From Stellaceae bacterium (lineage in GTDB: Bacteria; Pseudomonadota; Alphaproteobacteria; ATCC43930; CGMCC-115725), in assembly GCA_035569735.1 (NCBI GenBank), contig DATMMM010000443.1, positions 1-36,683 on the forward strand: 36,683 bases of DNA, in the 5' to 3' direction. The translations under genes and the position numbers were made by a program. The notes below the pieces were generated by a model. That model had not been told where the DNA came from and did no database searches. It saw nothing but the letters and a program-made list of their open reading frames with translations. Below are positions 8,925 to 29,434 of this stretch, piece by piece. The stretch's first letter is position 1. Every line of letters begins with the position of its first letter.

Positions 8925-8948
8925 CCGATAGGAGTAGGCGAAGGGATC

Positions 8949-9725: not shown

Positions 9726-9771
9726 TCGGGTACATCCTCGGCCACGGCGTGCTATCGGCGGATTTTGCGGA

Positions 9772-11358
9772 ATGAGCCACAGCGAAGCTCCTGCGTTTCC
9801 CTGGGGAGCCGACGACGCGTCCGCGGGGACTTTGCTCACCCGTTTCGCACGGGACCACGGCGACCACGTCTATTGCCGGTTCGGCGCCCACTCTTCTTCC
9901 GTGCGCGAGATCGAGACGGCGGCGAACCGCGTCGCCCACGGGCTCGCGCGCCGCGACATCCTCGCCGGCGACCGGGTCGGCGTGATGCTGGATCACCATC
10001 CGGACCACGTCATCGTCTTCTTCGCGCTCGCCAAGCTCGGCGCCGTGATGGTGCCGCTCAACGTCCATCTGCGCGGCGCGAGCCTCGAGCATTTGCTGCG
10101 CGACGGCGACCTCGCGAGCCTGATCGTCGAAGCACGCTTCGCCGAAACGGTGCAGCCGATATTGCAAACGACGCCGGTCGGACGCGTGATCTGGCGGGAG
10201 AACCCGGCGGGGTCGGAAACTGACGATTTCGCCGCGCTTCTAGCGGATCCGGAGTCGGCGCCGCCCCGTCACGAGGTCGCACCCGACGACATCGCCGTGA
10301 TTCTCTATACGTCGGGCACAACAGGCCTTCCCAAGGGCGTGTTGCTCACCGACCGCATGGTGAGGGTCGCGGCCTGCGCGTCGGGACGCGTCGCGGAGGC
10401 GAGGGACGGCGACGTCTTCCTGATGTGGGAGCCCATCAATCACATCGGCGGCATGGAGGTGCTGGTCTTGGCGGCGCAACGCCGGATCACGCTCGTGATG
10501 GTCGAGCGCTTCAGCGTGTCGCGATTCTGGCCCGAGGTTCGGGAGCATGGCATCACGCACCTGCATTTCCTCGGCGGGGTGCTGGCGCTCCTCCTGAAGG
10601 CCGAGCCGCGGCCCGAGGACCGCGACCACGGGATTCGCGTGGCCTGGGGCGGCGGCTGTCCGCTCTCGATCTGGCGCGCGTTCGAGGAGCGCTTTGGCAT
10701 CCCCATCCGCGAGGGCTATGGCATGACCGAGTGCGCGAGTTTTTCCGCGCAGAACCTTACCGGCAAGCTTGGATCGATTGGCGCCTGTCTTCCCTATCTC
10801 GAAATGCGCGTGGTCGACGAGCGCGGGCAACCGCTGGGGCCCGGCAAACGGGGCGAGATCTGGATTCGCGGAAAGCTGCCAGGCATCATCACGCCCGGTT
10901 ATTGGCGCAATCCGGAGGCGACGGCTGCGCTGTTCGAGGGCGAATGGCTCAGGACCGGCGACATCGGCTGGCATGACGAGGACGGCGACTTCTATTACAG
11001 CGGCCGCAAGAAGGACAGCGTCCGGCGCCGCGGCGAGAATGTCGCGGCCTTCGAGGTGGAGCGCGTGCTGAACGAGCACCCCGCCATCGCGGAAAGCGCC
11101 ATGGTCGGGGTCCCTAACGCCCTTGCCGACGAAGACATCAAGGCGTTCATCCGGCTGAAGCCCGGTGCCACCCTCGACCCGCTCGCGCTCATCCAGTGGT
11201 GCGAAACCCGGATGGCTTATTTCCAGATCCCGCGCTACCTCGCCTTCGTCGACAGCCTTCCCAAGACGCCGAGCGAGCGCATTCGCAAGGACGCGCTGTC
11301 GCGCGGGACCGAGGATAGCTGGGACCTCGAGCGCTCGGGCTACAGTCTCCGGAGATAA
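9772..11358 (+). CDS. AMP-dependent acyl-CoA synthetase/ligase (CaiC/short-chain acyl-CoA ligase-like)
   Basis: ILYTSGTTGLPKGV, GYGMTE, TGDIG and GRKKD adenylate-forming motifs. ATG 9772 was chosen because the upstream part of the track ORF overlaps the crotonase gene out of frame. The RBS is weak, so the start is uncertain. Confidence 0.85.
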   Translation: MSHSEAPAFPWGADDASAGTLLTRFARDHGDHVYCRFGAHSSSVREIETAANRVAHGLARRDILAGDRVGVMLDHHPDHVIVFFALAKLGAVMVPLNVHLRGASLEHLLRDGDLASLIVEARFAETVQPILQTTPVGRVIWRENPAGSETDDFAALLADPESAPPRHEVAPDDIAVILYTSGTTGLPKGVLLTDRMVRVAACASGRVAEARDGDVFLMWEPINHIGGMEVLVLAAQRRITLVMVERFSVSRFWPEVREHGITHLHFLGGVLALLLKAEPRPEDRDHGIRVAWGGGCPLSIWRAFEERFGIPIREGYGMTECASFSAQNLTGKLGSIGACLPYLEMRVVDERGQPLGPGKRGEIWIRGKLPGIITPGYWRNPEATAALFEGEWLRTGDIGWHDEDGDFYYSGRKKDSVRRRGENVAAFEVERVLNEHPAIAESAMVGVPNALADEDIKAFIRLKPGATLDPLALIQWCETRMAYFQIPRYLAFVDSLPKTPSERIRKDALSRGTEDSWDLERSGYSLRR

Positions 11359-11470
11359 TCCTCCCTCGTCCCTTGGACGCGCCCCGTCCCATGCAAAGTC
11401 GAGGACCAATGGCTCGCCTTCTGCTATTGGCTGGACATCACTGGCACGCCGCTATCGAGGAGGTTCGACG

Positions 11471-11977
11471 ATGCGCACGCCCCCATCACGGTTTGCCGGC
11501 GCCGGACTTGCGCTGGCCGTTCTCGGCGGCTGGCTTGCCGGGCCCGCGCGAGGAGAGCTCCTGACGCACCACGATCTCCCCTATGACGTCGCGCTGACCA
11601 TCGCCAAGGGCGCGGTCGAGAGCTGCGCCGCGAAAGGATATCCGGAGTCCGCGGTCGTGGTGGACCGCGACGGCGAGACCATCGTGGCGATCCGCGGCGA
11701 CAACGCCGCGCCTCACACGATGGAAAACGCGCGCCGCAAAGCCTACACGGCGATGAGCTTTCGAACGGCCACGACCGAATACGCCAAGCGCTTCGCCGAC
11801 AACAATCCGGTGGTGCGCCAGCAGGTGACGCTGCCGAACGTCATCGCCATCCCCGGCGGCTTGCCGATCAAGGTCGGCGAAGAGATCGTCGGCGGCGTCG
11901 GCGCATCGGGCTCACCGGGAGTGGACGAGCCCTGCGTCCAAGACGGTCTCGACAAGGTGGCGGACCAGCTCAAGTGA
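11471..11977 (+). CDS. GlcG/HbpS-family (DUF336, heme-binding-like) protein with an N-terminal Sec signal peptide
   Basis: ATG follows GAGGAGG (11458-11464). Signal-like MRTPPSRFAGAGLALAVLGGWLAGPARG. Family core GGLPI...GGVGASG. Confidence 0.7.
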   Translation: MRTPPSRFAGAGLALAVLGGWLAGPARGELLTHHDLPYDVALTIAKGAVESCAAKGYPESAVVVDRDGETIVAIRGDNAAPHTMENARRKAYTAMSFRTATTEYAKRFADNNPVVRQQVTLPNVIAIPGGLPIKVGEEIVGGVGASGSPGVDEPCVQDGLDKVADQLK

Positions 11978-11987
11978 GGCACCGTTC

Positions 11988-12017
11988 TTGCCGACAGGAT
12001 CGGCCACATGGTATTAA
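11988..12017 (+). promoter_or_regulatory. Candidate sigma70-type promoter upstream of the PLP-enzyme/CoA-transferase/LLM sub-cluster
   Basis: TTGCCG (11988-11993), N18, TATTAA (12012-12017), in an unusually AT-rich stretch of the 89-nt spacer. Confidence 0.25.
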
Positions 12018-12066
12018 AATTAGGACGATAAGACGACTGGGCGTGAAGGCGTAGAGCGCGAGCATC

Positions 12067-13569
<1,503 letters not shown>

Positions 13570-13576
13570 GCAAGGG

Positions 13577-14542
13577 ATGGGGAGCGGATTGACCGAAGGA
13601 TATCTCGAGCTCCGGCGAAAGACCGTCGCGCGCGACCGAAGCCTGCGCGAGAAAGTGATGTCGCTCGAGGAGGCGGCGAAGCTCGTCAAGGACGGCGACC
13701 GCGTCGGCATCGGCGGCAGCACGCTCTCCCGCACGCCGATCGCCATGATCTGGGCGCTCATCCGTGCCGGGCGGAAAGGACTCTCCTGCTCGCGCGGCAT
13801 CATGTCGAGCGACGGCGAGCTCCTGCTGGGCTCGGGCGCCAGCGATCACCTGATCACCAGCTGGTTCAGCCAAGGCATCGTCTGGGGCGTCTCGAAGGTC
13901 ATGCGGCTCTACACGGAATCGAAGCGCGCGCGCTTCGAGGAGTGGAGCCACATGGCCATGGGTCTGCGCTTCCGCGCGGGCGCCATGGGCGTGCCGTTCT
14001 TGCCGATGCGCTCGATGATGGGCTCGGATGTGATCGCGCGGCTGCCCGAGGTGCGCCAGATCGATTGTCCCTTCACCGGCGAGAAGCTCGTCCTCGTGCC
14101 CGCGCTCAATCCCGACGTGGCGCTGATCCACGTGCAGCGCTGCGACCCCTATGGCAACGCGCAGATCGACGGCCTGCAATTCATGGACATCGATCTCGCG
14201 ATGGCGGCCAATCGCGTGATCCTGACCACCGAGCGGATCGTCTCCAACTAGCAGATCCGTCGCGCGCCCGACCAGACCAAGATCCCGTTCCTCGCGGTCG
14301 AGGCCGTGGTCGAGGTGCCCTTCGGCTGCGCGCCGCACGAGTGCTACGGCGTCTATGAGCCATTCTTCAAGCACCACGACATGTACGCCGGGCTGATGCG
14401 CAAGGATCCGGCCAAGGGTATCGCCGAGTACCTCGATCGCTATTTCCATGGGCCCAAGAGCTGGACCGAGTATCTCGACCTCATCGGCATGGAGGAGCTG
14501 CTCGATGCCGCGCGGCGCGGGAGGAGCATCTATGACGATTGA
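13577..14542 (+). pseudogene. Family-I (glutaconate-type) CoA-transferase subunit A interrupted by a single in-frame TAG at 14249-14251
   Basis: 224 codons (…DGDRVGIGGS…ALIHVQRCDPYGNAQIDG…TTERIVSN) are followed by TAG. The same frame then continues for 96 codons (QIRRAPDQTKIPFLAVEAVVEVPFGCAPHECYG…). It ends in a TGA that overlaps the B-subunit ATG. There are no frameshifts. Confidence 0.75.
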
Positions 14543-15323
14543 GACCACGAGCAAAGCCCCGGTGCGCAGTCACACGACCAGCGAGCTGCTCGCGGTCATG
14601 GCGAGCCGTCTCTTGAGAGACGGCCAGGTAGTTTTCGCCGGCGTGGGCATCCCGCTGCTGGCGGCGACCTTGGCGCAGCGCCTGCACGGGCCCGGCCTGA
14701 CGATCTTGTTCGAGGGCGGTACGATCGGCGCGTTCGTCGAGCCGGGGAAGCTGCCGCCCTCGACCAACGAGCAGCGCTGCACGCGGCGCGCCAACATGGT
14801 GCTGAGCAGCACCGACGTGCTGCTGCTCCTGCAGCGCGGCTACATCGACATCGGGTTCATGGGCGGCGCGCAGATCGATCAGTTCGGCAATCTCAACAGC
14901 TCTTTCATCGGTGATCCCGACAATCCGACGACGCGGTTGCCCGGAACGGGCGGCGGCAACGATATATCGAGCCTCACCGACATGATTGTCGCCATGAAGC
15001 ACGAGAAGCGGCGCTTCGTGCGCAAGGTCGATTTCATCACCAGTCCGGGATTCGTGCGGGGCGGCACGAGCCGGCGCGACAGCGGGCTGGTCGCCGGCGG
15101 CATGTACCGCGTGGTCACCGATCTCGGCATCATGGGCTTCGACGACGAGAGCCGGCGCATGACAGTGCTGGCGCTGCATTCCGGCGTCACGGTCGAGGAG
15201 ATCCAGGACAACACCGGTTTCGAGCTGCTGGTGGCCGACGATCTCGCCGTCACGGAGCCGCCGAGCGAGCGCGAGCTCTCGGTCCTGCGCCACCTAGACC
15301 CGGACAAACTCTATATCGCCTGA
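14532..15323 (+). CDS. Family-I CoA-transferase subunit B
   Basis: ATG 14532 is preceded by GGGAGGAG and overlaps the A-subunit stop by 11 nt. VFAGVGIPLLAA…ILFEGGTIG is at the catalytic-Glu position of the SENG-type motif. GGAQIDQFGNLN and PGTGGGNDI are also present. Confidence 0.85.
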   Translation: MTIETTSKAPVRSHTTSELLAVMASRLLRDGQVVFAGVGIPLLAATLAQRLHGPGLTILFEGGTIGAFVEPGKLPPSTNEQRCTRRANMVLSSTDVLLLLQRGYIDIGFMGGAQIDQFGNLNSSFIGDPDNPTTRLPGTGGGNDISSLTDMIVAMKHEKRRFVRKVDFITSPGFVRGGTSRRDSGLVAGGMYRVVTDLGIMGFDDESRRMTVLALHSGVTVEEIQDNTGFELLVADDLAVTEPPSERELSVLRHLDPDKLYIA

Positions 15324-15371
15324 CAAGCCGCGGCTGCGCAGGGCGGCCCCGCCGATCCACAGGAAAAAGAC

Positions 15372-16325
15372 ATGACCGGATTCTCGAACACCTTCGGCAT
15401 CGCGATGCGGAATTTCACGGCGTTCCCGCAATTGCCGGACGCGCAGGAGCTGGTCGAGTACGGCGTCCGGATGGAGGCGCTGGGCTTCGACTCTCTCTGG
15501 GTGTGGGACCATATCTTGCTGGGTGTTGAGCCGCATTTCCCGATCATCGATTCACTGTCGTTGCTGACCGCGGTGGGCGCGCGCACGAAGCGCATCAAGC
15601 TCGGCACCGGCGTGCTCATTTTGCCGCTCAGGAACCCGCTGTTGCTCGCCAAGCAGCTCTCGTCGATGGACCAGCTCAGCCAGGGCCGCCTTCTGCTCGG
15701 GGTGGCGTCGGGCTGGTACAAGCGCGAGTTCGATTCGGTCGGCGTGCCTTTCGAGAAGCGCGGCAAGATCATGGACGAGAATCTGACCATCATGACGCGG
15801 CTCTGGACCGAGGATGTCGTCGCCGGCGACTACCCGCCCTACCACATGAAAGCCGCGGTGATGTTTCCGAAGCCCTATCAGCGGCCGCGTCCCCCGATCC
15901 TGATCGGCGGCTACGTCGACCGGGTGTTGAAGCGAGCGGGCGTGGCGGGTGACGGGTGGCTCACGTATTTCTATACGCCCCAGAGCTTCACGAAATCCTG
16001 GAAGAAGGTGTGCGACTTCGCAGCCGAGGCGGGCAAGGACCCGGCGCGCCTGCTCAATGCCAATCAGCTGCCGATCATGGTGGGGCAGTCGCGTGCCGCG
16101 GTCGAGGCGCCGATGATGGAATGGCTCTCCAAGGAGTGGGACTATGCGTCCTGGAGCGAGTCCACCAAGGACTCCGCCATCATGGGCACGGTGGACGACT
16201 GCGTGGCGCAGCTCCAGGCGCATCTCGACGCCGGCGTGCAGAAGCTCATCTTCGTGCCCTATCAGTACCGCCCGGATCAGATCGACGTTATCGCCAAGGA
16301 AATCATTCCGCGCCTCAAGCGCTAG
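15372..16325 (+). CDS. Luciferase-like (LLM class) oxidoreductase, F420-dependent subtype likely (Rv2161c-like pattern)
   Basis: RBS AGGAAAAAG. GFDSLWVWDH, LPLRNPLLLAKQLSSMDQLSQGRLLLGVASGWYKREFDSVGVPFEKRGKIMDENL…LW. 317 aa. The F420 (rather than FMN) assignment is inferred from this motif pattern and from abutting the F420 operon. Confidence 0.75.
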   Translation: MTGFSNTFGIAMRNFTAFPQLPDAQELVEYGVRMEALGFDSLWVWDHILLGVEPHFPIIDSLSLLTAVGARTKRIKLGTGVLILPLRNPLLLAKQLSSMDQLSQGRLLLGVASGWYKREFDSVGVPFEKRGKIMDENLTIMTRLWTEDVVAGDYPPYHMKAAVMFPKPYQRPRPPILIGGYVDRVLKRAGVAGDGWLTYFYTPQSFTKSWKKVCDFAAEAGKDPARLLNANQLPIMVGQSRAAVEAPMMEWLSKEWDYASWSESTKDSAIMGTVDDCVAQLQAHLDAGVQKLIFVPYQYRPDQIDVIAKEIIPRLKR

Positions 16326-18766
16326 GCGGTTGCCGCGTCGGCCTCGCGCTGATACCGCCGCGCCGGCGCATTGACGACCTCGGCGAGGGGCGCCGCGGCG
16401 AGCGAGGCGCGCCGCCGCTCCTCGCCTGCGCTCTCATAAAGCGTGGTGCGCTGGATGGGCCGGCGTCCCGCCGCGAGAATGAGCGCCTCCATCCGCTCCG
16501 GCGACATCTCCTGGCCATGCGCGGCGCCGGCGGAGCGCGTGATCGTCTCGTTCATGAGCGTGCCGCCGAGGTCGTTCACCCCTGCCCGGAGACAGGCGGC
16601 AACGCCCTCCGGGCCCAGCTTTACCCAGGACGCCTGGATGCTTGGGATGTGCGGATGGAGAGCCAGGCGCGCCACCGCGTGCATCAGCACGGCCTCGCGG
16701 AACGTGGGTCCGCGGCGCGCGCGTCCTTTGAGATAGATCGGCGCTTCCATGTGGACGAAGGGCAAAGGGATGAACTCGGTGAAGCCGCCCGTGCGGGCCT
16801 GATGGCCGCGCACGCGCAACAGGTGCTTCGCCCAGTGATCGGGCCGGTCGACATGGCCGAACATGATCGTCACCGTGCTCTTGATCCCCATGGCGTGCGC
16901 GGCCTCCATCACCGCGAACCACTGGGCCGTATCGATCTTGTCCGGGCAGATTACGCGGCGGACTTCGTCGTCCAGGATCTCGGCGGCGGTGCCCGGCAGC
17001 GTGCCGAGCCCGGCCTCGCGCAGCCTCGCCAGGAAATCGGGGACGCCGACACCGAGCGTCTCGGCGCCTTGCCAGACCTCGAGCGCGGTGAAGGCGTGGA
17101 CGTGGATTCGCGGTGCCGCCTCTTTCACGGCCCGGCAGATATCGATGTACGTGGCACCGGTATAATCCGGGTGGATGCCCCCTTGCATGCAGACCTCGGT
17201 GGCACCCCGCGCCCAGGCTTCCCGCGTGCGGCGCCGGATCTCGGTGAGATCGAGGTCATAGGGACGCCCGCGCAGGTTCTCGCTCAGCTTGCCCTTGGAG
17301 AAGGCGCAGAACTGGCAGCGGAAATAGCAGACGTTGGTGTAGTTGATGTTCCGGTTGACCACGTAGGTGACGGCGTCGCCGTTGACGGAAGCGCGCAGCT
17401 CGTCCGCGGCCGCTGAGACCGCCGTGAACTCCTGTCCGCGAGCCGCGAACAGCCGCACGATCTCCGCTTCGGTCAGGTCCGCGCCCGCCTGCGCTCGCTC
17501 CAGCACGCGCATGAGCCCCGCGTCGAGATGCGCCGGCCTCGGCGCGCCGATAGAAGCCAACTCGCGCTCGGGTACCGCCGTCGCGACGCCCGGCGACCAC
17601 GTCTCGGCCCGCGCAAACCCCGCCGCATCCGAAAGGTGCAGCACCGCGCTCGAGAGCCGGGCATCGAGCCATCGGTCCGGCCGTTGCGCGTAGGTCGGAT
17701 AAATCGCGAGCCGCTCCACGAGCCCCTTGTCGGCGGCGTTGGTGGCGCGCTCGAGGACATCGAGGTGTGGCCATGGGGCCTCGGGATTGACATGGTCGGG
17801 CGTGACCGGCGAGACGCCGCCCCAATCATTGATGCCCGCGCCGACGAGCTGGCCGAGCGCGCCTGGATTGAGGTTGGGCGGCGACTGGATGTTCATCTCG
17901 GCTCCGAGCACGAGCCGCGCCACGGCGATGGTCCAGAGTTGCTCCTCGAGCGCGGCATCGGGCGCGCTCGCCATGCGCGTCTCGGGCTTGGCGCGGAAAT
18001 TCTGGACGATGACCTCCTGCAGATGGCCATGCCGGTCATGAAGCTCGCGGAGCGCGAGCAACGCCTCGATCCGCTCGCGCCGCGTCTCTCCGATGCCGAT
18101 CAGGATGCCCGAGGTGAGCGGCACCGCCGCCTCTCCGGCGAGGCGGATCGTCTCGAGCCGGAGAGCGGGTATTTTATCCGGAGAGCCGAAATGCGGGCCG
18201 CCTCGCTCGCAGAGCCGCTCGCTGCTGCTCTCGAGCATGAGCCCCTGGGAAACGGATACCGCGCGAAGCGCCGCGATGTCGCCCGCGGAGAGCAGACCGG
18301 GATTGGCGTGCGGCAGCAGCCCGGTCTCCTCGAAGACGAGCCGTGCTGCTTCCGCGAGATAGGCGATGGTCGTGTCGTGGCCGAGCGCTCGCAATTCCTC
18401 TCGCGCCAGGTCGTAGCGCAGCTCCGGCTTGTCGCCGAGCGTGAACAGCGCCTCCTTGCACCCGGCCGCCGCGCCCGCGCGCGCGATCGCCAAAACCTCC
18501 TCGCGCGAGAGATAGGCGCGCTCGCCCCGTCGCGGAGCGTGAGCGAAGGTACAGTAGTGGCAGACGTCGCGGCAGAGCTGCGTGAGCGGGATGAACACCT
18601 TTCGCGAGTAGGACACGATCGCGCCGTGGCCGGCGTCTCGCAAATCAGCCGCCGCCTCCATAAGGAGCGCGAGATCGGGGCACTCGCAGAGAGCGAGCGC
18701 CTCCGCCTCCGTCAGTCGCCGGCCCGCTCCCGCATCCTGCACCAAGGCATGCATAGGCTGTGGCAT
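16322..18766 (-). CDS. fbiC: FO synthase (7,8-didemethyl-8-hydroxy-5-deazariboflavin synthase), fused CofG+CofH
   Basis: Two radical-SAM CxxxCxxC motifs: CRDVCHYC (18551-18574) and CYFRCQFC (17306-17329). 814 aa. ATG 18766 is preceded by AGGAAA. The 1047-aa track ORF is an over-extension across cofC. Confidence 0.9.
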   Translation of the reverse strand: MPQPMHALVQDAGAGRRLTEAEALALCECPDLALLMEAAADLRDAGHGAIVSYSRKVFIPLTQLCRDVCHYCTFAHAPRRGERAYLSREEVLAIARAGAAAGCKEALFTLGDKPELRYDLAREELRALGHDTTIAYLAEAARLVFEETGLLPHANPGLLSAGDIAALRAVSVSQGLMLESSSERLCERGGPHFGSPDKIPALRLETIRLAGEAAVPLTSGILIGIGETRRERIEALLALRELHDRHGHLQEVIVQNFRAKPETRMASAPDAALEEQLWTIAVARLVLGAEMNIQSPPNLNPGALGQLVGAGINDWGGVSPVTPDHVNPEAPWPHLDVLERATNAADKGLVERLAIYPTYAQRPDRWLDARLSSAVLHLSDAAGFARAETWSPGVATAVPERELASIGAPRPAHLDAGLMRVLERAQAGADLTEAEIVRLFAARGQEFTAVSAAADELRASVNGDAVTYVVNRNINYTNVCYFRCQFCAFSKGKLSENLRGRPYDLDLTEIRRRTREAWARGATEVCMQGGIHPDYTGATYIDICRAVKEAAPRIHVHAFTALEVWQGAETLGVGVPDFLARLREAGLGTLPGTAAEILDDEVRRVICPDKIDTAQWFAVMEAAHAMGIKSTVTIMFGHVDRPDHWAKHLLRVRGHQARTGGFTEFIPLPFVHMEAPIYLKGRARRGPTFREAVLMHAVARLALHPHIPSIQASWVKLGPEGVAACLRAGVNDLGGTLMNETITRSAGAAHGQEMSPERMEALILAAGRRPIQRTTLYESAGEERRRASLAAAPLAEVVNAPARRYQREADAATA

Positions 18767-18777
18767 TCGAGGTTTTC

Positions 18778-19482
18778 CTAATTGGATTCGATCGCCGGGC
18801 GCGCCGGATCGATATAGGCCGCGGGGAGGCGCGCCGTCGCGTTGCACCGGTCGAGATAGGCGTGACTGAGCGTGGCCGAGCCGCAGGCGAGAAATTCCCT
18901 GAGGTCCTCGGGCCGATCGATATCGAGCCCGATGCCGCGAAGCCGCAGGATGCGCGGGGTGACGCCGCGCTCCAGCGCCGCCTCGAGATGGTGGAAGAAG
19001 CTCTGCTTGCCGAACCGGATCGGGATAGCGTCCATGGGCATGAGCGCGACCGCATTCGTTCCCATATCCGCGAGCGCAGGCACCAAAGTGACGGCGGGGC
19101 GGGTTTGGGGCGCAGCCAGGATCTCGCCGATCTCGGTGCTGGTCGCGAGCGGCACGTCGGCGGGAATCGCGAGCATGCCGGCCGCCCCCTCCGCCGCCAG
19201 CTCTTTCGCCGCCAGCATGATGGCCGCGTTCGGTCCGTCGTGGCGGAGGTCCGCGATCACGCGGGCACCGAACGAGTGCGCCGTCGCGGCGAGCGCGGCT
19301 TCGCGCGTGACCACGATCGTGCCGGCAAGCGCGGGGACGCCCGCGAGCGCGGTCAGGACGTCCTCCAGCATGGCCCGCGCCAGACCCTGCCGCTCCTCGG
19401 CGGTCAGAACACCCGCAAGCCGCCGCTTTGCCTGCGCCAGATCCTTCGCAGGGACCACTGCCCAAAGACCGTCACGGGCCAC
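18778..19482 (-). CDS. cofC: F420 biosynthesis guanylyltransferase (2-phospho-L-lactate / phosphoenolpyruvate guanylyltransferase)
   Basis: LWAVVPAKDLAQAKRRLAGVL N-terminus is typical of CofC/FbiD. GTG 19482 has GGAG 7 nt upstream and overlaps the cofD stop by 11 nt. The alternative start GTG 19512 is possible. Confidence 0.75.
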   Translation of the reverse strand: MARDGLWAVVPAKDLAQAKRRLAGVLTAEERQGLARAMLEDVLTALAGVPALAGTIVVTREAALAATAHSFGARVIADLRHDGPNAAIMLAAKELAAEGAAGMLAIPADVPLATSTEIGEILAAPQTRPAVTLVPALADMGTNAVALMPMDAIPIRFGKQSFFHHLEAALERGVTPRILRLRGIGLDIDRPEDLREFLACGSATLSHAYLDRCNATARLPAAYIDPARPAIESN

Positions 19483-20461
19483 GCGGCGTCTCCATCCTAA
19501 GTGGTTTCGCACGGCGATCGAGGCTGGCGCCGAACTCCAGCGCCTCGCGGGCCAATCGCTCGCGGTCTTCCAGCGAGGTCATCAGAATGCGGCTGCTCCT
19601 CGTCGTCAAAGGCAAGCTGGCGGCTTCGGCGTGGTCGGCACCGTCTATCATGATCCCATCGATGAGGCCGTGATAGTGGCTCGCAATCGAGGCCTGGGTC
19701 AGCGGCACACCGAGTTCGGCCATGATCTTCGCGGTGGGTCCTTTGACCGCCTGACCTCCAATTAAAGGCGAGATCCCGAGCGCCGGAGCAGCGCACTCCT
19801 GGAGCGCTTGTCTCAACGCAGGCAAAGCCAGGATCGGGCCCACGCTCAGGTAGGGGTTCGAGGGGCAGATCACCACCAATGCGAGATCGGGCGACCGCAG
19901 CGCCGCCATGACCTGTGCATTGGGCCTCGCCCGCTCGGCACCCTCAAAAATGATTCGGGTGACCGCGGGCTCGCAGCGGCGGGCGACGAAGTAGCGCTGG
20001 AAGGGCATCGTGCCCTCGGACGTCTCCACCAGGGTCCTGACGGGATCGTCGCTCATCGGCAGGAGCGCGGCGTCGATGCCGAGCCGGCGAGCAAAATCGT
20101 CGGTGACGGCCGTCAGGCTGTCGCCGCCGCCGAGCCTGCGCGTCCGCTGGACATGGGTGGCGAGATCGCCGTCGCCGAGCCGGAACCAGGTCTCGCCGCC
20201 GAGCGCCGCCAGTGCCTCCATGAACGTCCAGGTCTCGCCGCGGCGTCCCCAGCCGGTCTCGGGATTGCTGAGCCCGGCAAGGGTGTACATGACGGTGTCG
20301 AGATCGGGCGAAACATGCAGGCCGAGATGCACGAAATCGTCCCCTGTGTTGACGCAGAGGACGAGGTCGTTTGGTGCGAGGACCCGATAGAGTCCCAAGG
20401 CGAGCTTCGCCCCGCCGACGCCGCCGCAGAGGGCAAGCACCTTATGTCCGCGCGTGATCAT
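19472..20461 (-). CDS. cofD: 2-phospho-L-lactate (or EPPG):FO transferase
   Basis: KVLALCGGVGGAKLALGL N-terminus, PSNPYLSVGPIL and SPLIGGQAVKGP are CofD/FbiA hallmarks. The ATG at 20461 forms an ATGA overlap with the cofE stop. Confidence 0.85.
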   Translation of the reverse strand: MITRGHKVLALCGGVGGAKLALGLYRVLAPNDLVLCVNTGDDFVHLGLHVSPDLDTVMYTLAGLSNPETGWGRRGETWTFMEALAALGGETWFRLGDGDLATHVQRTRRLGGGDSLTAVTDDFARRLGIDAALLPMSDDPVRTLVETSEGTMPFQRYFVARRCEPAVTRIIFEGAERARPNAQVMAALRSPDLALVVICPSNPYLSVGPILALPALRQALQECAAPALGISPLIGGQAVKGPTAKIMAELGVPLTQASIASHYHGLIDGIMIDGADHAEAASLPLTTRSSRILMTSLEDRERLAREALEFGASLDRRAKPLRMETPRGP

Positions 20462-21231
20462 CGGAACAGATCGAGCTGCTTCGGCCGAATAAGAGCGCGC
20501 GCTGGAGACTCCGGCCGATTGCCCCAGTCCAACCCGTGCACGAGCACCGCCGGCTGGCGCTCGGCCGCCTGACCCATCACGAGGGAGGCCGCGGCGGCGA
20601 TCTCGTCGGCAAATCCGATCTGGGTCACGCGCAGCGTGCGGCCGAAAAGATCGGCTTCGCCCACCATATCCACGAGCGAGGGCAGACCCGCGGCGCCCAG
20701 CGCTATTCCCACCACGCCGTTCCGCCAGGCGCGACCGAAGCTGTCGTTGATGATGACGCCGAATGCCACGCCGAAATGCGCGTCGAGCCGGCGCTTGAGC
20801 CCAAGGCACGTGCCGTCTGGGTCCACCGGCAAGAGCAGCACGCGCTCGCCCTCCTCGGCGTGATCGATATTGGACTGGTCGACCCCGGCATTCGCCATGA
20901 CGAAGCCCAGGCGATGCTCGACGATCACCACGTCGCGCTTGCAGCGAAGGATCTCGGCCGATTCGGAAAGGATCACCTCGATGAGGCGTGGGTCCTTGTG
21001 GCTTTCGCGCGCGATCTCCTGGGCTCGCGGCGAGGCCGTCACCTCCTCGAGCCGGCGATAGCGCCCCTCGGCTTTCGAGACGATTTTCTGGGCGACTACC
21101 AGCACGTCCCGGTCGCGGGGCGCGTGCCCCGTCGCCTCGATCGCTTCGATCAGGATCGACGCGAGGTCGTCACCGGGCTCGATGAGCGGGATGCCCGGGA
21201 GTGCGATCAAGCCGACCCGTGCCGCGGCCAT
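20458..21231 (-). CDS. cofE: F420-0:gamma-glutamyl ligase, short form without the C-terminal FMN/nitroreductase domain
   Basis: LVVAQKIVSKAEGR, GFVMANAGVDQSN and INDSFGRAWRNG motifs. 257 aa. Confidence 0.85.
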   Translation of the reverse strand: MAAARVGLIALPGIPLIEPGDDLASILIEAIEATGHAPRDRDVLVVAQKIVSKAEGRYRRLEEVTASPRAQEIARESHKDPRLIEVILSESAEILRCKRDVVIVEHRLGFVMANAGVDQSNIDHAEEGERVLLLPVDPDGTCLGLKRRLDAHFGVAFGVIINDSFGRAWRNGVVGIALGAAGLPSLVDMVGEADLFGRTLRVTQIGFADEIAAAASLVMGQAAERQPAVLVHGLDWGNRPESPARALIRPKQLDLFR

Positions 21232-21277
21232 CCTCTACGCCTCGCTCTGCAGAGCCGATAATGCCGATAAGCCTCGC

Positions 21278-22054
21278 TCAGGTAAGCTTCATCTCTGTGA
21301 GCGGCAGGACGCGTACGCCCGCGGCTTCCAATTCCTGACGCACGCCGCGCGCCGCAACGACCGCGGTCGGCTCGTCGCCGTGGACGCAAAGGCTGTCGAT
21401 CTTGCGCGGCAAGTGCTTGCCGTTTCGCGAGACGATCTCCTCGTCGAGCACCATGCGGACGACGCGGTGCTTGATCTCCTCGGGGTCGTGCAGCACGGCA
21501 CCCGAAATCTTTCGCGAGGTGAGATTCCCGTCGTCGTCGTAGAGGCGGTCGCAGAAGCCCTCGCGCGCCAACGGCAGCTCGAGCTTGAGCGCGGCCGCTT
21601 CCATCTGCGATCCCGCGAGCGCCACATAGATGATGTTCCGATCGATGGTTTTGATGGCGCGGCCGATGGCGAGGCCGATCTCGAGGTCCTCGGCCGCCAT
21701 GTTGTTGAGGGAGCCGTGGGGCTTCAGATGAGTGACCTTGGTCCCTGCATAAGCCGCCATCCCCTGGAGCGCGCCGATCTGATAGGCGACCATGTACTCG
21801 AGATCGCGCGTGTTCATATCGATGCGGCGCCGGCCGAAGCCCCAGAGATCGTTGAAGCCCGGGTGGGCGCCGATGCTGACGCCCTTCTCCTTCGCGCGCG
21901 TCACCACGGTATGCATGGTGTTGGGATCGCCCGCATGGAACCCGCAGGCGATGCTCGCGGATTTGATGATGTCGAGCAGCGCATCATCGTTGCCGATCTT
22001 AAAGGCACCGAAGCTCTCGCCCATATCGGCATTCAAATTGACCTGGTTCGCCAT
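21278..22054 (-). CDS. pxpA: 5-oxoprolinase subunit A (LamB/YcsF family lactam hydrolase)
   Basis: VNLNADMGESFG…GFHAGDP…GAHPGFNDLWGFGRR…LKPHGSLNN. RBS GAGGAG. It sits 46 nt upstream of cofE on the same strand. Confidence 0.85.
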   Translation of the reverse strand: MANQVNLNADMGESFGAFKIGNDDALLDIIKSASIACGFHAGDPNTMHTVVTRAKEKGVSIGAHPGFNDLWGFGRRRIDMNTRDLEYMVAYQIGALQGMAAYAGTKVTHLKPHGSLNNMAAEDLEIGLAIGRAIKTIDRNIIYVALAGSQMEAAALKLELPLAREGFCDRLYDDDGNLTSRKISGAVLHDPEEIKHRVVRMVLDEEIVSRNGKHLPRKIDSLCVHGDEPTAVVAARGVRQELEAAGVRVLPLTEMKLT

Positions 22055-22082
22055 CGCGATCTCCTCGTCTCAAGCGCGCCCG

Positions 22083-22123
22083 GAGATATGGTATCAAGTT
22101 CCGGACGATGATAAGATAGTCTC
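22083..22123. promoter_or_regulatory. AT-rich imperfect inverted repeat in the pxpA/pxpB divergent spacer; candidate GntR operator
   Basis: GAGATATGGTATC (22083-22095) faces GATAAGATAGTCTC (22110-22123). The reverse complement of the right arm is GAGACTATCTTATC, which matches about 11 of 13 with one indel. It is the only AT-rich patch in a GC-rich spacer. Confidence 0.3.
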
Positions 22124-22210
22124 TTTGAGCGCGTCCGTTCAATGACTTAGCCTGCTCGGAATCGCAGCCGCCGTCGACTCCGGCGCGATCCGGGCGCCGG
22201 GTGTCCCGAG

Positions 22211-22933
22211 GTGGCCGTCAAATTCCTGCCCAGCGCCGACAGCGCCGTCATCGTCGAGTTCGGCGATCGGATCGACCGCGCGGTCAGCGATCAGGTGCTC
22301 GGTCTCGCCGCCCGGATGCGCGCGGCCGATATCGCCGGCGTCGTGGAGGTCGTGCCGAGTTTTCGCTCGCTCATGGTGCAGTATGACCCGCTGCGCACAA
22401 GCTCGGCCGAGCTCATCGGGGCCATCCAGACTCTGCTGACCAGGAAGACCGCGCTCGACCGGAAGCGGCGCCTCTGGCGCGTGCCCGTTTGTTACGAGAG
22501 CGACTTCGCGCCCGATCTCGAGAGTGTCGCCCGGCAGACCAAGCTTGCTCTCGAGGAGGTCATAGCGCTCCACGCGGGCACTCGATACCACGTCTACATG
22601 ATCGGCTTCGTGCCGGGCTATCCCTATATGGGAGGCCTCGCCGAAGCCCTGGTCCTGCCGCGGCGTGCCGATCCGCGCATTCGCGTCCCACCGGGCTCGG
22701 TCGCGATCGCGACCACCATGACCGCGATCTATCCGCTCGAGAGTCCCGGCGGCTGGCATCTCATCGGCACGACGCCGATCCGGATCTTCGACACGCTCGC
22801 CTCGCCCCCGGCGCTGTTCGCGCCTGGCGACGCCGTCGAGTTCGAGCCCGTGGATAGCGCGACCTTTGCCCGGATCCGATCCGCCACGGAACGGCGCGAC
22901 TATCGGCCGGCCTCGACGGAGCTCGCGGCATGA
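22211..22933 (+). CDS. pxpB: 5-oxoprolinase subunit B (KipI / allophanate hydrolase subunit 1 family)
   Basis: KFLPSADSAVIVEFGD…VVPSFRSLMVQYDP…GFVPGYPYMGGL. GTG start. The TGA overlaps the pxpC ATG (ATGA at 22930-22933). Confidence 0.8.
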   Translation: MAVKFLPSADSAVIVEFGDRIDRAVSDQVLGLAARMRAADIAGVVEVVPSFRSLMVQYDPLRTSSAELIGAIQTLLTRKTALDRKRRLWRVPVCYESDFAPDLESVARQTKLALEEVIALHAGTRYHVYMIGFVPGYPYMGGLAEALVLPRRADPRIRVPPGSVAIATTMTAIYPLESPGGWHLIGTTPIRIFDTLASPPALFAPGDAVEFEPVDSATFARIRSATERRDYRPASTELAA

Positions 22934-23964
22934 CGGCGGCGCTCAAGGTCGTGGCTCCCGGTATTCATACGACCATCCAGGATCTCGGCCGCTACGGCTA
23001 TCAAGCCTTTGGCGTGCCGGTATCGGGTGCGCTCGATGTCATCAGCCATCGGCTCGCCAATCGCATCGTCGGGAATGTCGATAACGCGCCGACACTGGAG
23101 ATCCTCTTTCAAGGACCGACGCTCGAAGTGATGGCGGACTCCGCGCGCATTGCCATCGCAGGCGGCGCCGCCGAGATCGAGCTCATGGGCGCTCGCCCGA
23201 GCAGCCTCGGTGGCTGGCGCAGCGCTTTGCTGCGCCGCGGGCAGAGATTTCGCGTGAGCAAGCTCGGCGAAGCCGCTTGCTGTTATCTCGCCGTGGAGGG
23301 CGGCTTCGGCATCGAGCCTTGCCTCGGCAGCGCATCGACCTACGCTCGCGGCGGCTTCGGCGGGCTCGAGGGCCGTGCGGTTCAGGCGGGCGATCTGGTG
23401 CCGCTCGTACGCGAGCAGGCCTCGGAGCGCGCCGAGCTCGGGCTTGCCGAGCCGCCTCGGCCAAGCCGGGAGCAGCGGATCCGGATCGTGCTTGGGCCTC
23501 AGCAAGACCACTTCACCGAGGCCGCGCTCGAGCGCCTCGTCAGCGAGGACTTCATCGTCTCCAAGCATGCGGATCGCATGGGGATGCGCCTCGACGGGCC
23601 GCTCCTCGCGCATCGCGACGGCTACAACATCGTCTCGGACGGCATCGCCACCGGCGCCATCCAGGTGCCGGGCTCCGGCCAACCCATCCTCCTACTCGCC
23701 GATCACCAGACCACCGGCGGCTATCCCAAGATCGCGACGGTGATCTCGGCGGATATTCCGGTGGTGGGCCGGCGCAAGCCCGGCGACCTCGTTCGATTCG
23801 CGGCCGTCAATGTCGCCGAGGCGGAACGGCTGCGCTGCGACCAGGAGGCCGCTTTCAAGGCTCTGGTTGCCGGCCTGGCGCCGCTCAAGCCGGCGGGAGG
23901 CCTCGATGCGGCGCGGCTCCTCGATGCCAATCTCATCAGCGGCGTGGTGTTCGACGAGACATGA
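22930..23964 (+). CDS. pxpC: 5-oxoprolinase subunit C (KipA / allophanate hydrolase subunit 2 family)
   Basis: TTIQDLGRYGYQAFGVPVSGALD…DHQTTGGYPKIATV. Confidence 0.85.
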   Translation: MTAALKVVAPGIHTTIQDLGRYGYQAFGVPVSGALDVISHRLANRIVGNVDNAPTLEILFQGPTLEVMADSARIAIAGGAAEIELMGARPSSLGGWRSALLRRGQRFRVSKLGEAACCYLAVEGGFGIEPCLGSASTYARGGFGGLEGRAVQAGDLVPLVREQASERAELGLAEPPRPSREQRIRIVLGPQQDHFTEAALERLVSEDFIVSKHADRMGMRLDGPLLAHRDGYNIVSDGIATGAIQVPGSGQPILLLADHQTTGGYPKIATVISADIPVVGRRKPGDLVRFAAVNVAEAERLRCDQEAAFKALVAGLAPLKPAGGLDAARLLDANLISGVVFDET

Positions 23965-23988
23965 CGTGGAGGGAGGGACAGGCGCACC

Positions 23989-24753
23989 ATGACTGAGCTT
24001 GCCAAGACGCTGCGGCTGAGCGCGGTTCCGCTCTATATTCAGGTCGCGGCGGAGCTCCGGCGGCGCATCGAGAGCGGCCACTGGGCATCCGGCCAGAAGA
24101 TCTCGACCATCGAGGATCTGCAGAGGGAGTTCGGGGTCGCGCGCGTCACCGTCCGCCAGGCCGTCGAGCTGTTGGAGAACGATGGGCTGGTGCGCCGCCA
24201 GCAAGGACGGGGGACCTTCGTCGCGGCGGAGCTCGAGGACACCCGCTGGCTCAAGCTCGACACCAGCTGGTCCTCGCTGATCGGCACGCTCAAGCACAAT
24301 GTGCCCAAATTCATGCCGGTGAGCGCGCCGACCGAGCCGCCCCGGCTCGGGCCCGAGGAGGGCAAACCCTCTCCCGACTATGTCTTCCTGCGCAGCGTGC
24401 AATATCGAGGCGACCGAGCCTATTCAGTCGTGAGCGTCCAATTGGCGAAAGACATTTACGAGCGCGATCCCCACGCGTTTCGGCGGCATGCTGCGCTCCC
24501 CATCGTGGCGGAAATGGCAGGGATAAAAATCGCCAGCGCCCGGCAGACGCTGGTCATCGGCAGCGCCGACCCCGAGATCGCGGGACTGCTCGGCGTGCCC
24601 CTCAATGCGCCCACCGCCGAGGCTCGCTGCGTGGTGATCGACCGTCGCGGCATCGCCATCTATGTCGCCGATATCATCTACCGCGGCGATTGCATCCGCC
24701 TGGAGACCACCTTGCTCAACGACGGCGGCTCCAAGCGGAGCGCGAAGGGCTGA
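23989..24753 (+). CDS. GntR-family transcriptional regulator, HutC-type (winged HTH + UTRA effector domain)
   Basis: PLYIQVAAELRRRIESGHW…KISTIEDLQREFGVARVTVRQAVELLENDGLVRRQQGRGTFV. 254 aa. Confidence 0.85.
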   Translation: MTELAKTLRLSAVPLYIQVAAELRRRIESGHWASGQKISTIEDLQREFGVARVTVRQAVELLENDGLVRRQQGRGTFVAAELEDTRWLKLDTSWSSLIGTLKHNVPKFMPVSAPTEPPRLGPEEGKPSPDYVFLRSVQYRGDRAYSVVSVQLAKDIYERDPHAFRRHAALPIVAEMAGIKIASARQTLVIGSADPEIAGLLGVPLNAPTAEARCVVIDRRGIAIYVADIIYRGDCIRLETTLLNDGGSKRSAKG

Positions 24754-24761
24754 CCGGGCAC

Positions 24762-25400
24762 TCACACCGGCGCATCGCGGGGCGTCCACGAGATCTCATC
24801 GATCGGCCGGCGCGTCGCGGGTTTGCCGGGTCCGGCGGGCCGGCCGAGCGTCACGATGGCCTGCGGCTCCCATCCCTTCGGCAGCCCCAACGCCTCGGTG
24901 ACCACGTCGGGACAGAAGAGCGGCGCGCACATCCAGCAGGCGCCGAGGCCCTCGGCGTGCGCCGCCAGCAGCAGGTTCTGCACCGCCATGGCGGCGCTCT
25001 GCACGGCCATGGTGTGCTCGGCCCGTCGCCGATCGTCGGGGTAGCGGTCCATGTCCGCCATGTCGAGCGCCACGACGATCACCACGGGGGCGCCAGTGAT
25101 GCGCGCGTAGGAGCGCGCGACGTCCTGCTCGATCGCGGCGACGGAATCGCCATCCGCCAGCCGGTCTCGCCGGAGCCGCTCGCCCATGGCGAGCGCGAGC
25201 CGGTCCTTCCAGTCGAACGCCGTCAGCATCGCGAAGCGCCAGGGCTGCCGGTTGTGCGCCGAGGGCGCCCAGCGCGCCGCCGCCAGGACGCGGTCGAGCG
25301 TTTCGGCCGGCACGGCGCTCGCTTCATAACGCCGGATCGAGCGCCGATCGGCCACCAGGCTATAGAAGATCTCCGCAGGAGACTGCCGGCCGGACGTCAT
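24762..25400 (-). CDS. Stand-alone nitroreductase-fold FMN protein
   Basis: RRSIRRY…AARWAPSAHNRQPWRF…AMAVQNLLLAAHAEGLGACWM. 212 aa. GGAG RBS. Confidence 0.85.
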   Translation of the reverse strand: MTSGRQSPAEIFYSLVADRRSIRRYEASAVPAETLDRVLAAARWAPSAHNRQPWRFAMLTAFDWKDRLALAMGERLRRDRLADGDSVAAIEQDVARSYARITGAPVVIVVALDMADMDRYPDDRRRAEHTMAVQSAAMAVQNLLLAAHAEGLGACWMCAPLFCPDVVTEALGLPKGWEPQAIVTLGRPAGPGKPATRRPIDEISWTPRDAPV

Positions 25401-25506
25401 TCCCGATCTCCATCCTGACTTACATGTCCTCGCATGTTGTCATAGGCCCGCGGCTGGAGCACCATCGGCGACCGAGGGAATTTCTCGAGCTCGAGGGAGG
25501 CGTGTC

Positions 25507-26085
25507 ATGAGTGTTGCGGATGCGAACCATGTGGTTCTGACCGGCGAAAATCCATTCATCCGGCTGAGCGAGCGCGACGGCGACCCCAACAAGACGGATG
25601 CGAGCTTCTGGCGCATCATCTTTTGCCCAGCAGGGCCGGGGCATGTGCTCTACCTCAAGAGCGAGCTCACGGAGAACCGCTGGCGCATTTATTCCGACAA
25701 CATCGCGATGGCGCGCTGGCTGCAATCGACCGTGCAGGGCATGCTCAATGCCGAGCTCGCCGACACCGGCATCCCCGTGATCGACGCCGGCTTCGAGAAG
25801 TCCGGAGACGTCCGCGACTTCTGGACCGAGCGCGTGGCCACGAGGAACGACGAGATCAGCCTCACCTGGTATCGGATCGGCGAGCCCCTGCTGATCCACA
25901 CTCAGCCGAATGCGGCACCGGACCGGCCCTACGGCGTGTGCACGGTTCTGATACCGGCGCTCGGCGCGCGGCTTTCGCGCAACGGCGTCGAGGCCACCGG
26001 CCGGCCCTGGCCGCGGCAGCGCGAAGGCCGGCCCTTCAGCACCTGCGCGCTCGCCTTCTCGGAAAGCTGGACCGAGGCCCGATAA
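25507..26085 (+). CDS. Hypothetical protein, no family recognised
   Basis: ATG is preceded by GGGAGG (25494-25499). Codon usage is gene-like, there is no competing ORF, and it is 192 aa. I recognise no motif. Confidence 0.6.
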   Translation: MSVADANHVVLTGENPFIRLSERDGDPNKTDASFWRIIFCPAGPGHVLYLKSELTENRWRIYSDNIAMARWLQSTVQGMLNAELADTGIPVIDAGFEKSGDVRDFWTERVATRNDEISLTWYRIGEPLLIHTQPNAAPDRPYGVCTVLIPALGARLSRNGVEATGRPWPRQREGRPFSTCALAFSESWTEAR

Positions 26086-26107
26086 GCGGCCCCACGAAAG
26101 CCGCTCG

Positions 26108-26899: not shown

Positions 26900-26908
26900 G
26901 CCGCCGGA

Positions 26909-29430: not shown

Positions 29431-29434
29431 GGGA

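Follow-up and report, generated by a model that had tools for sequence, protein, structure and literature searches.

A coenzyme F420 cassette in a Stellaceae genome and its predicted place in a lactam or N-heterocycle regulon

Why do Proteobacteria make coenzyme F420, a cofactor that is well understood in methanogens and actinobacteria? Its production has been demonstrated chemically in both Oligotropha carboxidovorans and in Paracoccus denitrificans, where its role is unknown according to the account of Ney et al. 2017 given in a later review (PMC8498797). The same 2021 review states that cultured Alphaproteobacteria contain only traces of F420, with no known role there, that studies of F420-dependent enzymes are lacking for Proteobacteria, and that the reason for which these bacteria make the cofactor is unknown (PMC8498797). 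The question is raised again by a 36,683-nt contig of a Stellaceae bacterium (GenBank assembly GCA_035569735.1, contig DATMMM010000443.1; this whole stretch is hereafter referred to as the window), in which four genes for F420 biosynthesis, cofE, cofD, cofC and fbiC, converge on a gene encoding a luciferase-like oxidoreductase of the LLM (or LLHT) type. A first interpretation made from the letters alone, hereafter the sequence-only reading, had presented the four genes as a complete operon adjoining a catabolic island, and had held that the physiological role of F420 in Proteobacteria is largely unknown, with which the review agrees. Our analysis suggests, with a probability of roughly 60%, that this cassette is functional, that it is part of a larger regulon and that it makes F420 on demand for the catabolism of a lactam or N-heterocycle.

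The biosynthetic genes

Proteins were assigned to families using NCBIfam profiles with their curated cut-offs, in addition to Pfam. The cofE, cofD, cofC and fbiC genes lie one after the other on the same strand, each of their products scores above the cut-off of the corresponding NCBIfam model (Table 1), and the Pfam families agree for all four proteins. Four consecutive family-specific matches of this kind cannot be due to chance, and it is well supported, from family membership, that the cassette is one that makes F420. As for FbiC, it is a fusion of a CofG domain (residues 52-375) and a CofH domain (residues 432-779), which passes TIGR03550 and TIGR03551 as well as the model listed in Table 1, and which displays two radical-SAM CxxxCxxC motifs, CRDVCHYC at residues 65-72 and CYFRCQFC at residues 480-487. 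CofE is a single-domain protein that covers just positions 9-243 of the 449-position model for the two-domain FbiB. The genes are tightly packed, as we could see by reading the bases directly. There is an ATGA overlap between cofE and cofD (20461-20458), an 11-nt overlap between cofD and cofC, in which the GTG of cofC at 19482 is preceded 7 nt upstream by GGAG and the TGA of cofD occupies 19474-19472, and an 11-nt gap between cofC (TAG at 18780-18778) and fbiC (ATG at 18766). At the other end of the cassette, the stop codons of fbiC and of the LLM gene interlock in a CTAG at 16322-16325.

All gene starts and stops are identical in an independent gene call on L081, a contig from a public metagenome that is 99.917% identical to the window over 16.8 kb. 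The coding differences between the two contigs comprise 12 synonymous changes and one nonsense change, and seven of the 12 lie in fbiC, which fits purifying selection. The sequence-only reading thus proved exact on the coordinates, shared strand and junctions of the four genes, on the fused FbiC with both of its motifs and on the "short" CofE. Its attribution of the DNA to a proteobacterium holds as well, since the closest CofD proteins among GTDB species representatives, at 76-81% identity, are those of Stellaceae metagenome-assembled genomes (MAGs), that is, Alphaproteobacteria. The G+C content is even over the F420 region. More widely, relatives of CofD are encoded at more than 545 loci across Alpha-, Beta- and Gammaproteobacteria, and homologues are found on 38 plasmids, 17 of which are conjugative.

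Which form of F420 would be produced? The use of 3-phosphoglycerate (3-PG) by the CofC of Mycetohabitans is determined by residues S162, H145, M91 and C95 (PMC8764529). This enzyme (7p97) is the best PDB match of the window CofC (E 1e-23), in which all four residues are replaced, by G158, M140, P84 and I88, respectively. Because the four 3-PG determinants are absent, we predict a classical lactyl F420 derived from phosphoenolpyruvate (PEP) or 2-phospho-L-lactate (2-PL).

The function missing from the short CofE may be supplied by a candidate encoded nearby, a stand-alone protein of the nitroreductase superfamily. Its best PDB match is FbiB's C-terminal domain (4xom, E 2.5e-26), the next match having an E value of 2.6e-18. 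Among the NCBIfam models, TIGR03553 comes first with 136.5 bits, below its cut-off of 249.55, and BluB second with 90.7 bits; TIGR03553 describes the equivalog domain of the FbiB fusion, so that failing its cut-off is uninformative for stand-alone forms. For Mycobacterium tuberculosis FbiB, the residues proposed to line the dehydro-F420 pocket are P289, R337 and M372 (PMC6450877). In our alignment, R337 and M372 correspond to R96 and M131 of the window protein and are both kept, as is the AEHTM motif, and P289 corresponds to A48. Moreover, the protein is 50% identical (E 6e-50) to the nitroreductase (WP_012643075.1) of the cofD-cofC cluster of Thermomicrobium roseum, an organism in which a stand-alone dehydro-F420 reductase named FbiE, possibly this same cluster protein, has been demonstrated (Braga et al. 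2020, as related in PMC8498797). When the window proteins were searched by tblastn against 80 genome loci seeded with CofD, on which the context counts for CofD-seeded loci below are based, a homologue of the nitroreductase was found at most 10 kb from cofD in nine; in both Variovorax and Ramlibacter, it is encoded immediately downstream of fbiC. JGI labels homologues of this protein "FbiB-like". We claim its membership as "FbiE-like" only, and consider it the likely candidate for a dehydro-F420-0 reductase that would complete the pathway.

Gene neighborhood and a shared 32-nt element

The transcription unit probably extends beyond the four genes. Only 46 nt upstream of cofE, and on the same strand, lies pxpA, and a terminator scan found no terminator-like site in this gap. 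pxpA is therefore probably the first gene of the cof/fbiC unit; its spacing and conservation, together with the shared element described below, make it reasonable to infer that it is transcribed with the cassette. Of the "complete operon" of the sequence-only reading, the four-gene set stands, and completeness is safer once the FbiE-like nitroreductase is counted, but the start at cofE does not stand, as pxpA would head the unit. Diverging from pxpA are pxpB and pxpC, followed by a gene for a GntR/HutC-type regulator. The PxpABC of Escherichia coli and Bacillus subtilis is a three-part ATP-dependent lactam-opening enzyme, 5-oxoprolinase. In the window, PxpA passes a subfamily model (NF003814) and PxpB an equivalog model (TIGR00370), and the PxpC-like protein scores 225 with the PxpC equivalog model, below its cut-off of 500, which implies that the lactam may not be 5-oxoproline. 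In the CofD-seeded loci, pxpA precedes cofE, with or without an intervening fno gene, in 22 of 80 cases, and the GntR/HutC gene is kept beside the cluster in 24.

On the opposite strand, four genes form a module that runs toward fbiC. The first encodes a divergent pyridoxal-phosphate (PLP) enzyme with a CysK-like core (residues 90-400) and N- and C-terminal extensions. No NCBIfam model passes its cut-off with this protein, its best PDB matches are cysteine synthases (E 1e-17), and its homologues are annotated at source merely as "cysteine synthase" or "PLP-dependent enzyme." In loci seeded with the LLM protein, its gene always accompanies those for the CoA-transferase and the LLM. A 67%-identical homologue is found in an Acidobacteria MAG, beside a molybdenum (Mo) hydroxylase, an amidohydrolase and an ABC transporter, with no F420 genes. 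The next two genes encode the subunits of a CoA-transferase that we predict to be GctAB-like (family I) and unlike the decarboxylase AibAB, the catalytic Glu being kept in subunit B, where Glu61 (FEGG) corresponds to E54 of GctB (VESG) and AibB has a Ser. The last gene encodes the LLM, which passes TIGR03619, the "F420-dependent LLM" model, and is predicted to be F420-dependent. The sequence-only reading had considered this protein to be of the F420 type, for which the profile argues, and to close the catabolic island, which is correct only insofar as it ends the four-gene module that begins at 12067. It does not close the whole island, because even the closest relative shows no synteny between the genes at 1-11977 and the F420 cluster, and these genes were left out of the system.

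How conserved is this arrangement? Among the CofD-seeded loci, cofE is present in 65 of 80, cofC in 62, fbiC in 60, the CoA-transferase subunits in 26, the PLP enzyme in 23 and an LLM orthologue, defined as at least 60% identical to the window protein, in 24, with any LLM homologue in 55. The order pxpA-fno-cofE-cofD-cofC-fbiC-PLP-CoATa-CoATb-LLM, where CoATa and CoATb are the CoA-transferase subunits, recurs on one strand in Bradyrhizobium, Afipia, Xanthobacter, Kaistia, Pseudolabrys, Roseiarcus, Pseudohoeflea and several MAGs, and in the Stellaceae, the window among them, the block made up of the final four genes is inverted. In many genomes, LLM orthologues of 64-76% identity follow the fbiC, PLP and CoA-transferase genes on one strand. 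In metagenome loci seeded with the LLM, the four genes of the module are together wherever sequence exists, and nine of the 16 loci that are 12 kb or longer carry cof/fbiC genes. The suggestion that the LLM catalyzes an F420-dependent catabolic step is thus strengthened, both by its orthologues near cofD and by the shared cis element.

Other lineages display different arrangements. Agrobacterium rubi has the order pxpB-pxpC-LLM-cofD-cofC-fbiC-gabT-cofE-npdG. Betaproteobacteria (Variovorax, Ramlibacter, Undibacterium) keep GntR, pxpCB, pxpA, fno, cofEDC and fbiC, after which Variovorax and Ramlibacter have a further PLP enzyme in addition to the nitroreductase. In Variovorax humicola (L059:14241-16906), the genes after fbiC encode a beta-carbonic anhydrase, an FbiE-like nitroreductase and, as the further PLP enzyme, a diaminopropionate ammonia-lyase (NF006058, 505 bits with a cut-off of 276), neighbors that hint at a small cyclic-ureide or lactam substrate. 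These betaproteobacterial clusters have no LLM module, so that the F420 consumer may differ between lineages. In two sister Stellaceae loci, L001 (10055-11947) and L084 (10001-11893), cofD abuts the LLM gene and both cofC and fbiC are missing, and the F420 cassette therefore appears to have been partly deleted in some relatives.

As for fno, which encodes an NADPH-dependent F420 reductase, it is present in 42 of the 80 loci (TIGR01915, 184-204 bits against 149.8) and in relatives it is placed between pxpA and cofE, for example at 8539-9216 of locus L038 and 8541-9200 of locus L007. A tblastn search of the 36.7-kb window with the Fno proteins of two relatives detected no fno (best E 0.066), and its usual place is taken by the 46-nt gap. 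This is in keeping with the earlier statement that no F420-reducing enzyme, be it Fno or Fgd, is recognizable in the window. The gene is likewise absent at this locus from several sister Stellaceae contigs.

What would tie these genes together is a 32-nt operator-like element, one copy of which is found between the divergent pxpA and pxpB genes and another upstream of the PLP-LLM module (Table 1). The core of copy 1 is invariant in an alignment of 10 relatives, in which the flanks cannot be aligned, and copy 2 is conserved in seven relatives, in which the flanks diverge. A position weight matrix built from the pxpA/pxpB sites of nine relatives only, with the window excluded from training, ranks copy 1 first and copy 2 second in the whole window. 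Copy 2 scores 30.1 bits, and the maximum over 200 shuffled windows is 0.5 bits (mean -11.8, sd 4.1). There is no third copy in the window, including upstream of the nitroreductase gene, matrix scores being below background. Copy 2 overlaps the sole sigma-70-like promoter match in 11500-26200. Because the element is conserved in front of both pxpA/pxpB and the PLP-LLM module, we infer that these genes form one regulon, and the GntR/HutC protein is likely to bind both copies. A single-nucleotide polymorphism (SNP) lies within copy 2, position 12026 being C in the window and T in L081. A scan of the whole window with Rfam at gathering thresholds found no riboswitch or other RNA family.

Several neighboring genes are recorded here on their own account. 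The island at 719-11977 encodes an EutQ-like cupin, a DddP-like M24 protein (342 bits, below a cut-off of 600), two DAO-type oxidases, a GMC oxidoreductase, an OYE/FadH-type Fe-S flavoenzyme, an enoyl-CoA hydratase, an acyl-CoA ligase and an HbpS-like protein. Divergent from the nitroreductase gene is an open reading frame of 192 aa (25507-26085, plus strand) that is 86% conserved in L038; searches of Pfam and NCBIfam gave no match to this frame or to that at 26900-27319, even at E <= 1. Further along, on the minus strand (27154-30771), lie the FAD, 2Fe-2S and Mo subunits of a Mo-hydroxylase of the xanthine-dehydrogenase family, which are 93-97% identical in L038. This enzyme was not counted in the system, its identity to the Mo-hydroxylases that accompany the cluster in other genera being 26-30%.

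Table 1. Features of the predicted F420 regulon in the window, in order of position
Feature	Position	Strand	Evidence or location
Operator-like element, copy 2 (ATGGTATTAAAATTAGGACGATAAGACGACTG)	12008-12039	plus	Ends 28 nt upstream of PLP-enzyme start
PLP enzyme, predicted fold type II, divergent, 500 aa	12067-13569	plus	Pfam PALP, 45 bits
Glutaconate-CoA-transferase-like subunit A, 321 codons	13577-14542	plus	GctA, PDB 1poi_A, E 5e-44
Glutaconate-CoA-transferase-like subunit B, 263 aa	14532-15323	plus	GctB, PDB 1poi_B, E 8.5e-46
LLM/LLHT luciferase-like oxidoreductase	15372-16325	plus	TIGR03619, 196.2 (cut-off 166.9)
fbiC, CofG+CofH fusion (FO synthase), 814 aa	16322-18766	minus	NF006687, 1155.9 (cut-off 1018)
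cofC/fbiD, guanylyltransferase, 234 aa, GTG start	18778-19482	minus	TIGR03552, 154.7 (cut-off 105)
cofD/fbiA, phospho-lactyl (or enolpyruvyl) transferase, 329 aa	19472-20461	minus	TIGR01819, 290.4 (cut-off 257.45)
cofE, gamma-glutamyl ligase, single-domain, 257 aa	20458-21231	minus	TIGR01916, 267.6 (cut-off 180.65)
pxpA (LamB/YcsF family)	21278-22054	minus	NF003814, 342 (cut-off 226)
Operator-like element, copy 1 (ATGGTATCAAGTTCCGGACGATGATAAGATAG)	22088-22119	plus	pxpA/pxpB divergent intergenic region
pxpB (carboxyltransferase C/D subdomains)	22211-22933	plus	TIGR00370, 192.7 (cut-off 145.55); Pfam CT_C_D
pxpC-like (carboxyltransferase A/B subdomains)	22930-23964	plus	TIGR00724, 301.4 (cut-off 230.2)
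GntR/HutC-type regulator (winged helix-turn-helix + UTRA)	23989-24753	plus	Pfam GntR, UTRA
Nitroreductase-superfamily protein, FbiB-C-terminal/FbiE-like, 212 aa	24762-25400	minus	Pfam PF00881; PDB 4xom

A proposed mechanism and its rivals

How might these genes work together? We propose that FbiC would make the deazaflavin FO, that CofC would activate a three-carbon acid (PEP or 2-PL rather than 3-PG) and that CofD would transfer it to FO. With the PEP route, the FbiE-like nitroreductase would reduce dehydro-F420-0, and the single-domain CofE would add the gamma-glutamyl tail. The pxpA-cofE-cofD-cofC-fbiC genes would be carried on one transcript, the promoter region of which would be shared divergently with pxpB-pxpC-gntR, and the convergent operon encoding the PLP enzyme, the GctAB-like CoA-transferase and the LLM would be controlled via the same 32-nt element. 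These three units would constitute one regulon, probably repressed by the GntR/HutC protein and induced by the pathway substrate. F420 would then carry hydride for the LLM as a lactam or N-heterocyclic carboxylate is broken down. The chemistry is speculative, but in a conceivable order of events the LLM and F420 would reduce or oxidize the ring, PxpABC would open the lactam in an ATP-dependent step, the PLP enzyme would carry out C-N chemistry and the resulting acid would finally be activated with CoA.

We favor a lactam or N-heterocycle because a ring opener and a C-N-cleaving enzyme recur in these clusters, often together with a Mo-hydroxylase and an ABC transporter. The recurring ring openers are PxpABC, a dihydroorotase-like protein or another amidohydrolase, and the recurring C-N enzymes are the CysK-like PLP enzyme, diaminopropionate ammonia-lyase, a deacylase or an aminotransferase. 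The evidence does not tell apart the substrates that we considered, which were pyrrole-2-carboxylate, imidazolone or 2-oxoimidazolidine carboxylates, pyridones and pyrimidines. The mere traces of F420 in cultured Alphaproteobacteria fit an inducible synthesis dedicated to a pathway. A broader proposal, which we put forward tentatively and at somewhat less than even odds, is that F420 synthesis in this bacterium and many other Proteobacteria is not a standing trait but a cassette co-regulated with a lactam/N-heterocycle regulon via a GntR/HutC-type operator, with F420H2 serving as a low-potential hydride for ring reduction. If true, this would give F420 its first defined physiological function in Proteobacteria and would explain why only traces are seen in cultured strains.

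Several observations weigh against the proposed F420-dependent regulon. The gene for CoA-transferase subunit A has a premature TAG at codon 225 (14249-14251), where L081 has GAG, a difference that may reflect either strain variation or an error of assembly. The PDB sequence matches of the LLM mix F420-dependent enzymes with enzymes that depend on flavin mononucleotide (FMN). In seven of the 16 long LLM-seeded loci, the PLP-CoAT-LLM module has no cof genes in the available flank, and the betaproteobacterial clusters lack the module. With fno missing at this locus, the route to and from F420H2 is not visible in the window. Furthermore, counts of promoter-like and terminator-like sites in 11500-26200 are no higher than in shuffled sequence, leaving the overlap of the one promoter-like match with copy 2 as the sole useful outcome of that scan, and the nitroreductase scores too low for TIGR03553, its gene also being without the operator-like element.

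Some of these points would also suit other explanations. The cassette could be a housekeeping operon for general F420 supply, accompanied by the LLM module and pxpABC through shared descent or on a mobile island, as might be expected from the loci in which the module is without adjacent cof genes and from the plasmid-borne CofD homologues, which suggest that the block may move as a unit. The linkage, however, outlives rearrangement, the module being inverted in the window, collinear in Hyphomicrobiales and re-ordered in A. rubi, it is kept in Alpha-, Beta- and Gammaproteobacteria alike, and passive synteny would not lead one to expect the same cis element at both promoters, all of which makes general supply unlikely in our view. 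PxpABC might even belong to such housekeeping, by recycling 5-oxoproline to which activated glutamate or the gamma-glutamyl tail would give rise in the course of the CofE reaction. We find this very improbable, because the PxpC-like protein fails its equivalog cut-off, other genomes have a different ring opener at this place (dihydroorotase-like on the Sinorhizobium meliloti megaplasmid pSymA, amidohydrolases elsewhere), which fits a catabolic role, and no such need has been reported for actinobacterial and archaeal F420 producers; on its side are the family cut-offs passed by PxpA and PxpB and the fact that no other gene is linked as closely to (fno-)cofE as pxpA, also in clusters without the LLM module.

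A different concern is whether the system is still in use. The four biosynthetic genes, the LLM gene, pxpABC and the nitroreductase gene are all intact, and every fbiC difference from L081 is synonymous, which makes it quite improbable that the operon is an unused remnant of a system decaying in this lineage, even though fno is absent here and common in related loci, CoA-transferase subunit A has its premature stop, and cofC and fbiC have been lost from L001 and L084. The stop is a single SNP that the 99.9%-identical contig does not have, and fno may sit elsewhere in the genome. More room must be left for the view that the nitroreductase is a catabolic reductase linked to FMN or F420 rather than a dehydro-F420 reductase, in which case CofC would use 2-PL. 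The protein fails the TIGR03553 cut-off, P289 is replaced, a nitroreductase is the sole candidate F420-binding enzyme besides Fno in the betaproteobacterial clusters without LLM, where it lies beside the diaminopropionate ammonia-lyase, and the CofC enzymes of Gram-negative bacteria preferred 2-PL in vitro (PMC8764529). Its similarity to the cof-cluster protein of T. roseum, where a stand-alone reductase has been demonstrated (PMC8498797), its retention of the AEHTM motif and of the Arg equivalent to R337, and the fact that no bacterial L-lactate kinase is known (PMC6450877) nevertheless lead us to doubt this view, which we deem rather unlikely. The functional, pathway-dedicated cassette thus remains the reading that we prefer.

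Significance and comparison with known systems

F420 operons in Proteobacteria have been known since 2017, stand-alone FbiE homologues and Fno and LLHT neighbors of the biosynthetic genes have also been described, and the operon itself adds nothing new; the sequence-only reading overstated its novelty, since proteobacterial F420 clusters with such neighbors have already been reviewed (PMC8498797). Its context is a testable lead on the role of F420 in Proteobacteria, offering a conserved ten-gene block, a shared cis element, a candidate consumer in the LLM and a candidate dehydro-F420 reductase. Among the papers available to us, none interprets the F420 cassette together with PxpABC, the CoA-transferase and the LLM as a single regulon, or connects F420 in one pathway with pxpA/LamB or with glutaconate CoA-transferase, the content of Ney 2017 and Braga 2020 having been taken from the review. 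Bradyrhizobium, Kaistia and Xanthobacter include cultivable carriers, and so does S. meliloti, in whose pSymA strains a statistical link between the region and nodule competitiveness has been reported. Identification of the inducer would bring the pathway to light, and with it probably an F420-dependent reaction that is new and of interest for biocatalysis.

Among the closest known organizations is that of the alphaproteobacterial F420 operons of O. carboxidovorans and P. denitrificans, which, like the window, combine a fused FbiC with stand-alone CofC, CofD and CofE. In these operons, Fno and LLHT genes adjoin the biosynthetic genes, whereas the window locus has no fno. The mycobacterial FbiA, FbiB, FbiC and FbiD carry out the same four chemistries, and their PEP route, with reduction of dehydro-F420-0 by a nitroreductase fold, is the likely analogue of the window pathway. 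There, however, FbiB is a CofE-nitroreductase fusion, for which the window has two separate genes. Mycobacterial F420 genes are dispersed, and F420 serves dozens of enzymes in these bacteria. As for the lactam-opening genes, the window resembles both the PxpABC of E. coli and B. subtilis and the lamA/lamB lactam-utilization genes of Aspergillus nidulans in having the three-part enzyme, PxpA and PxpB scoring above family cut-offs. In contrast to these systems, pxpA is split from pxpBC and is predicted to be joined transcriptionally to a cofactor operon.

The 3PG-F420 cluster of Mycetohabitans (Paraburkholderia) rhizoxinica is proteobacterial, like that of the window, and the Mycetohabitans CofC is the best PDB match of ours, but all four residues for 3-PG differ. 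The cofD-cofC-(DMT transporter)-nitroreductase cluster of T. roseum (Thermomicrobiota) follows the same logic as the window, with a single-domain CofE and a free-standing homologue of FbiB's C-terminal domain. The window nitroreductase differs in lying 3.5 kb from cofE, beside the regulator and outside the cof operon.

Finally, the conjugative megaplasmid pSymA of S. meliloti (locus L164, CP130049.1 41106-61903) carries npdG(fno)-cofE-cofD-cofC-fbiC, followed by CoA-transferase genes, a TIGR03619 LLM and an ArgE/DapE deacylase, and the block also lies beside a dihydroorotase-like gene, an ABC transporter and PntAB. Its cofE is not in the gene table of the record and was found by tblastn between npdG and cofD. 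In a genome-wide association study of nodule competitiveness in S. meliloti, the fbi genes, GctA/B, LLM, GntR, Mo-hydroxylase, dihydroorotase-like, ABC transporter and PntAB genes were flagged (Bellabarba et al. 2021, PMC8407117), the genes of this "fbi" region being listed without interpretation as a single pathway (PMC8407117). The GctAB-like proteins and the LLM of pSymA are 65-73% identical to those of the window, the LLM accounting for the 65%. Where the window has PxpABC and the PLP enzyme, however, pSymA has a dihydroorotase-like amidohydrolase and an ArgE/DapE deacylase.

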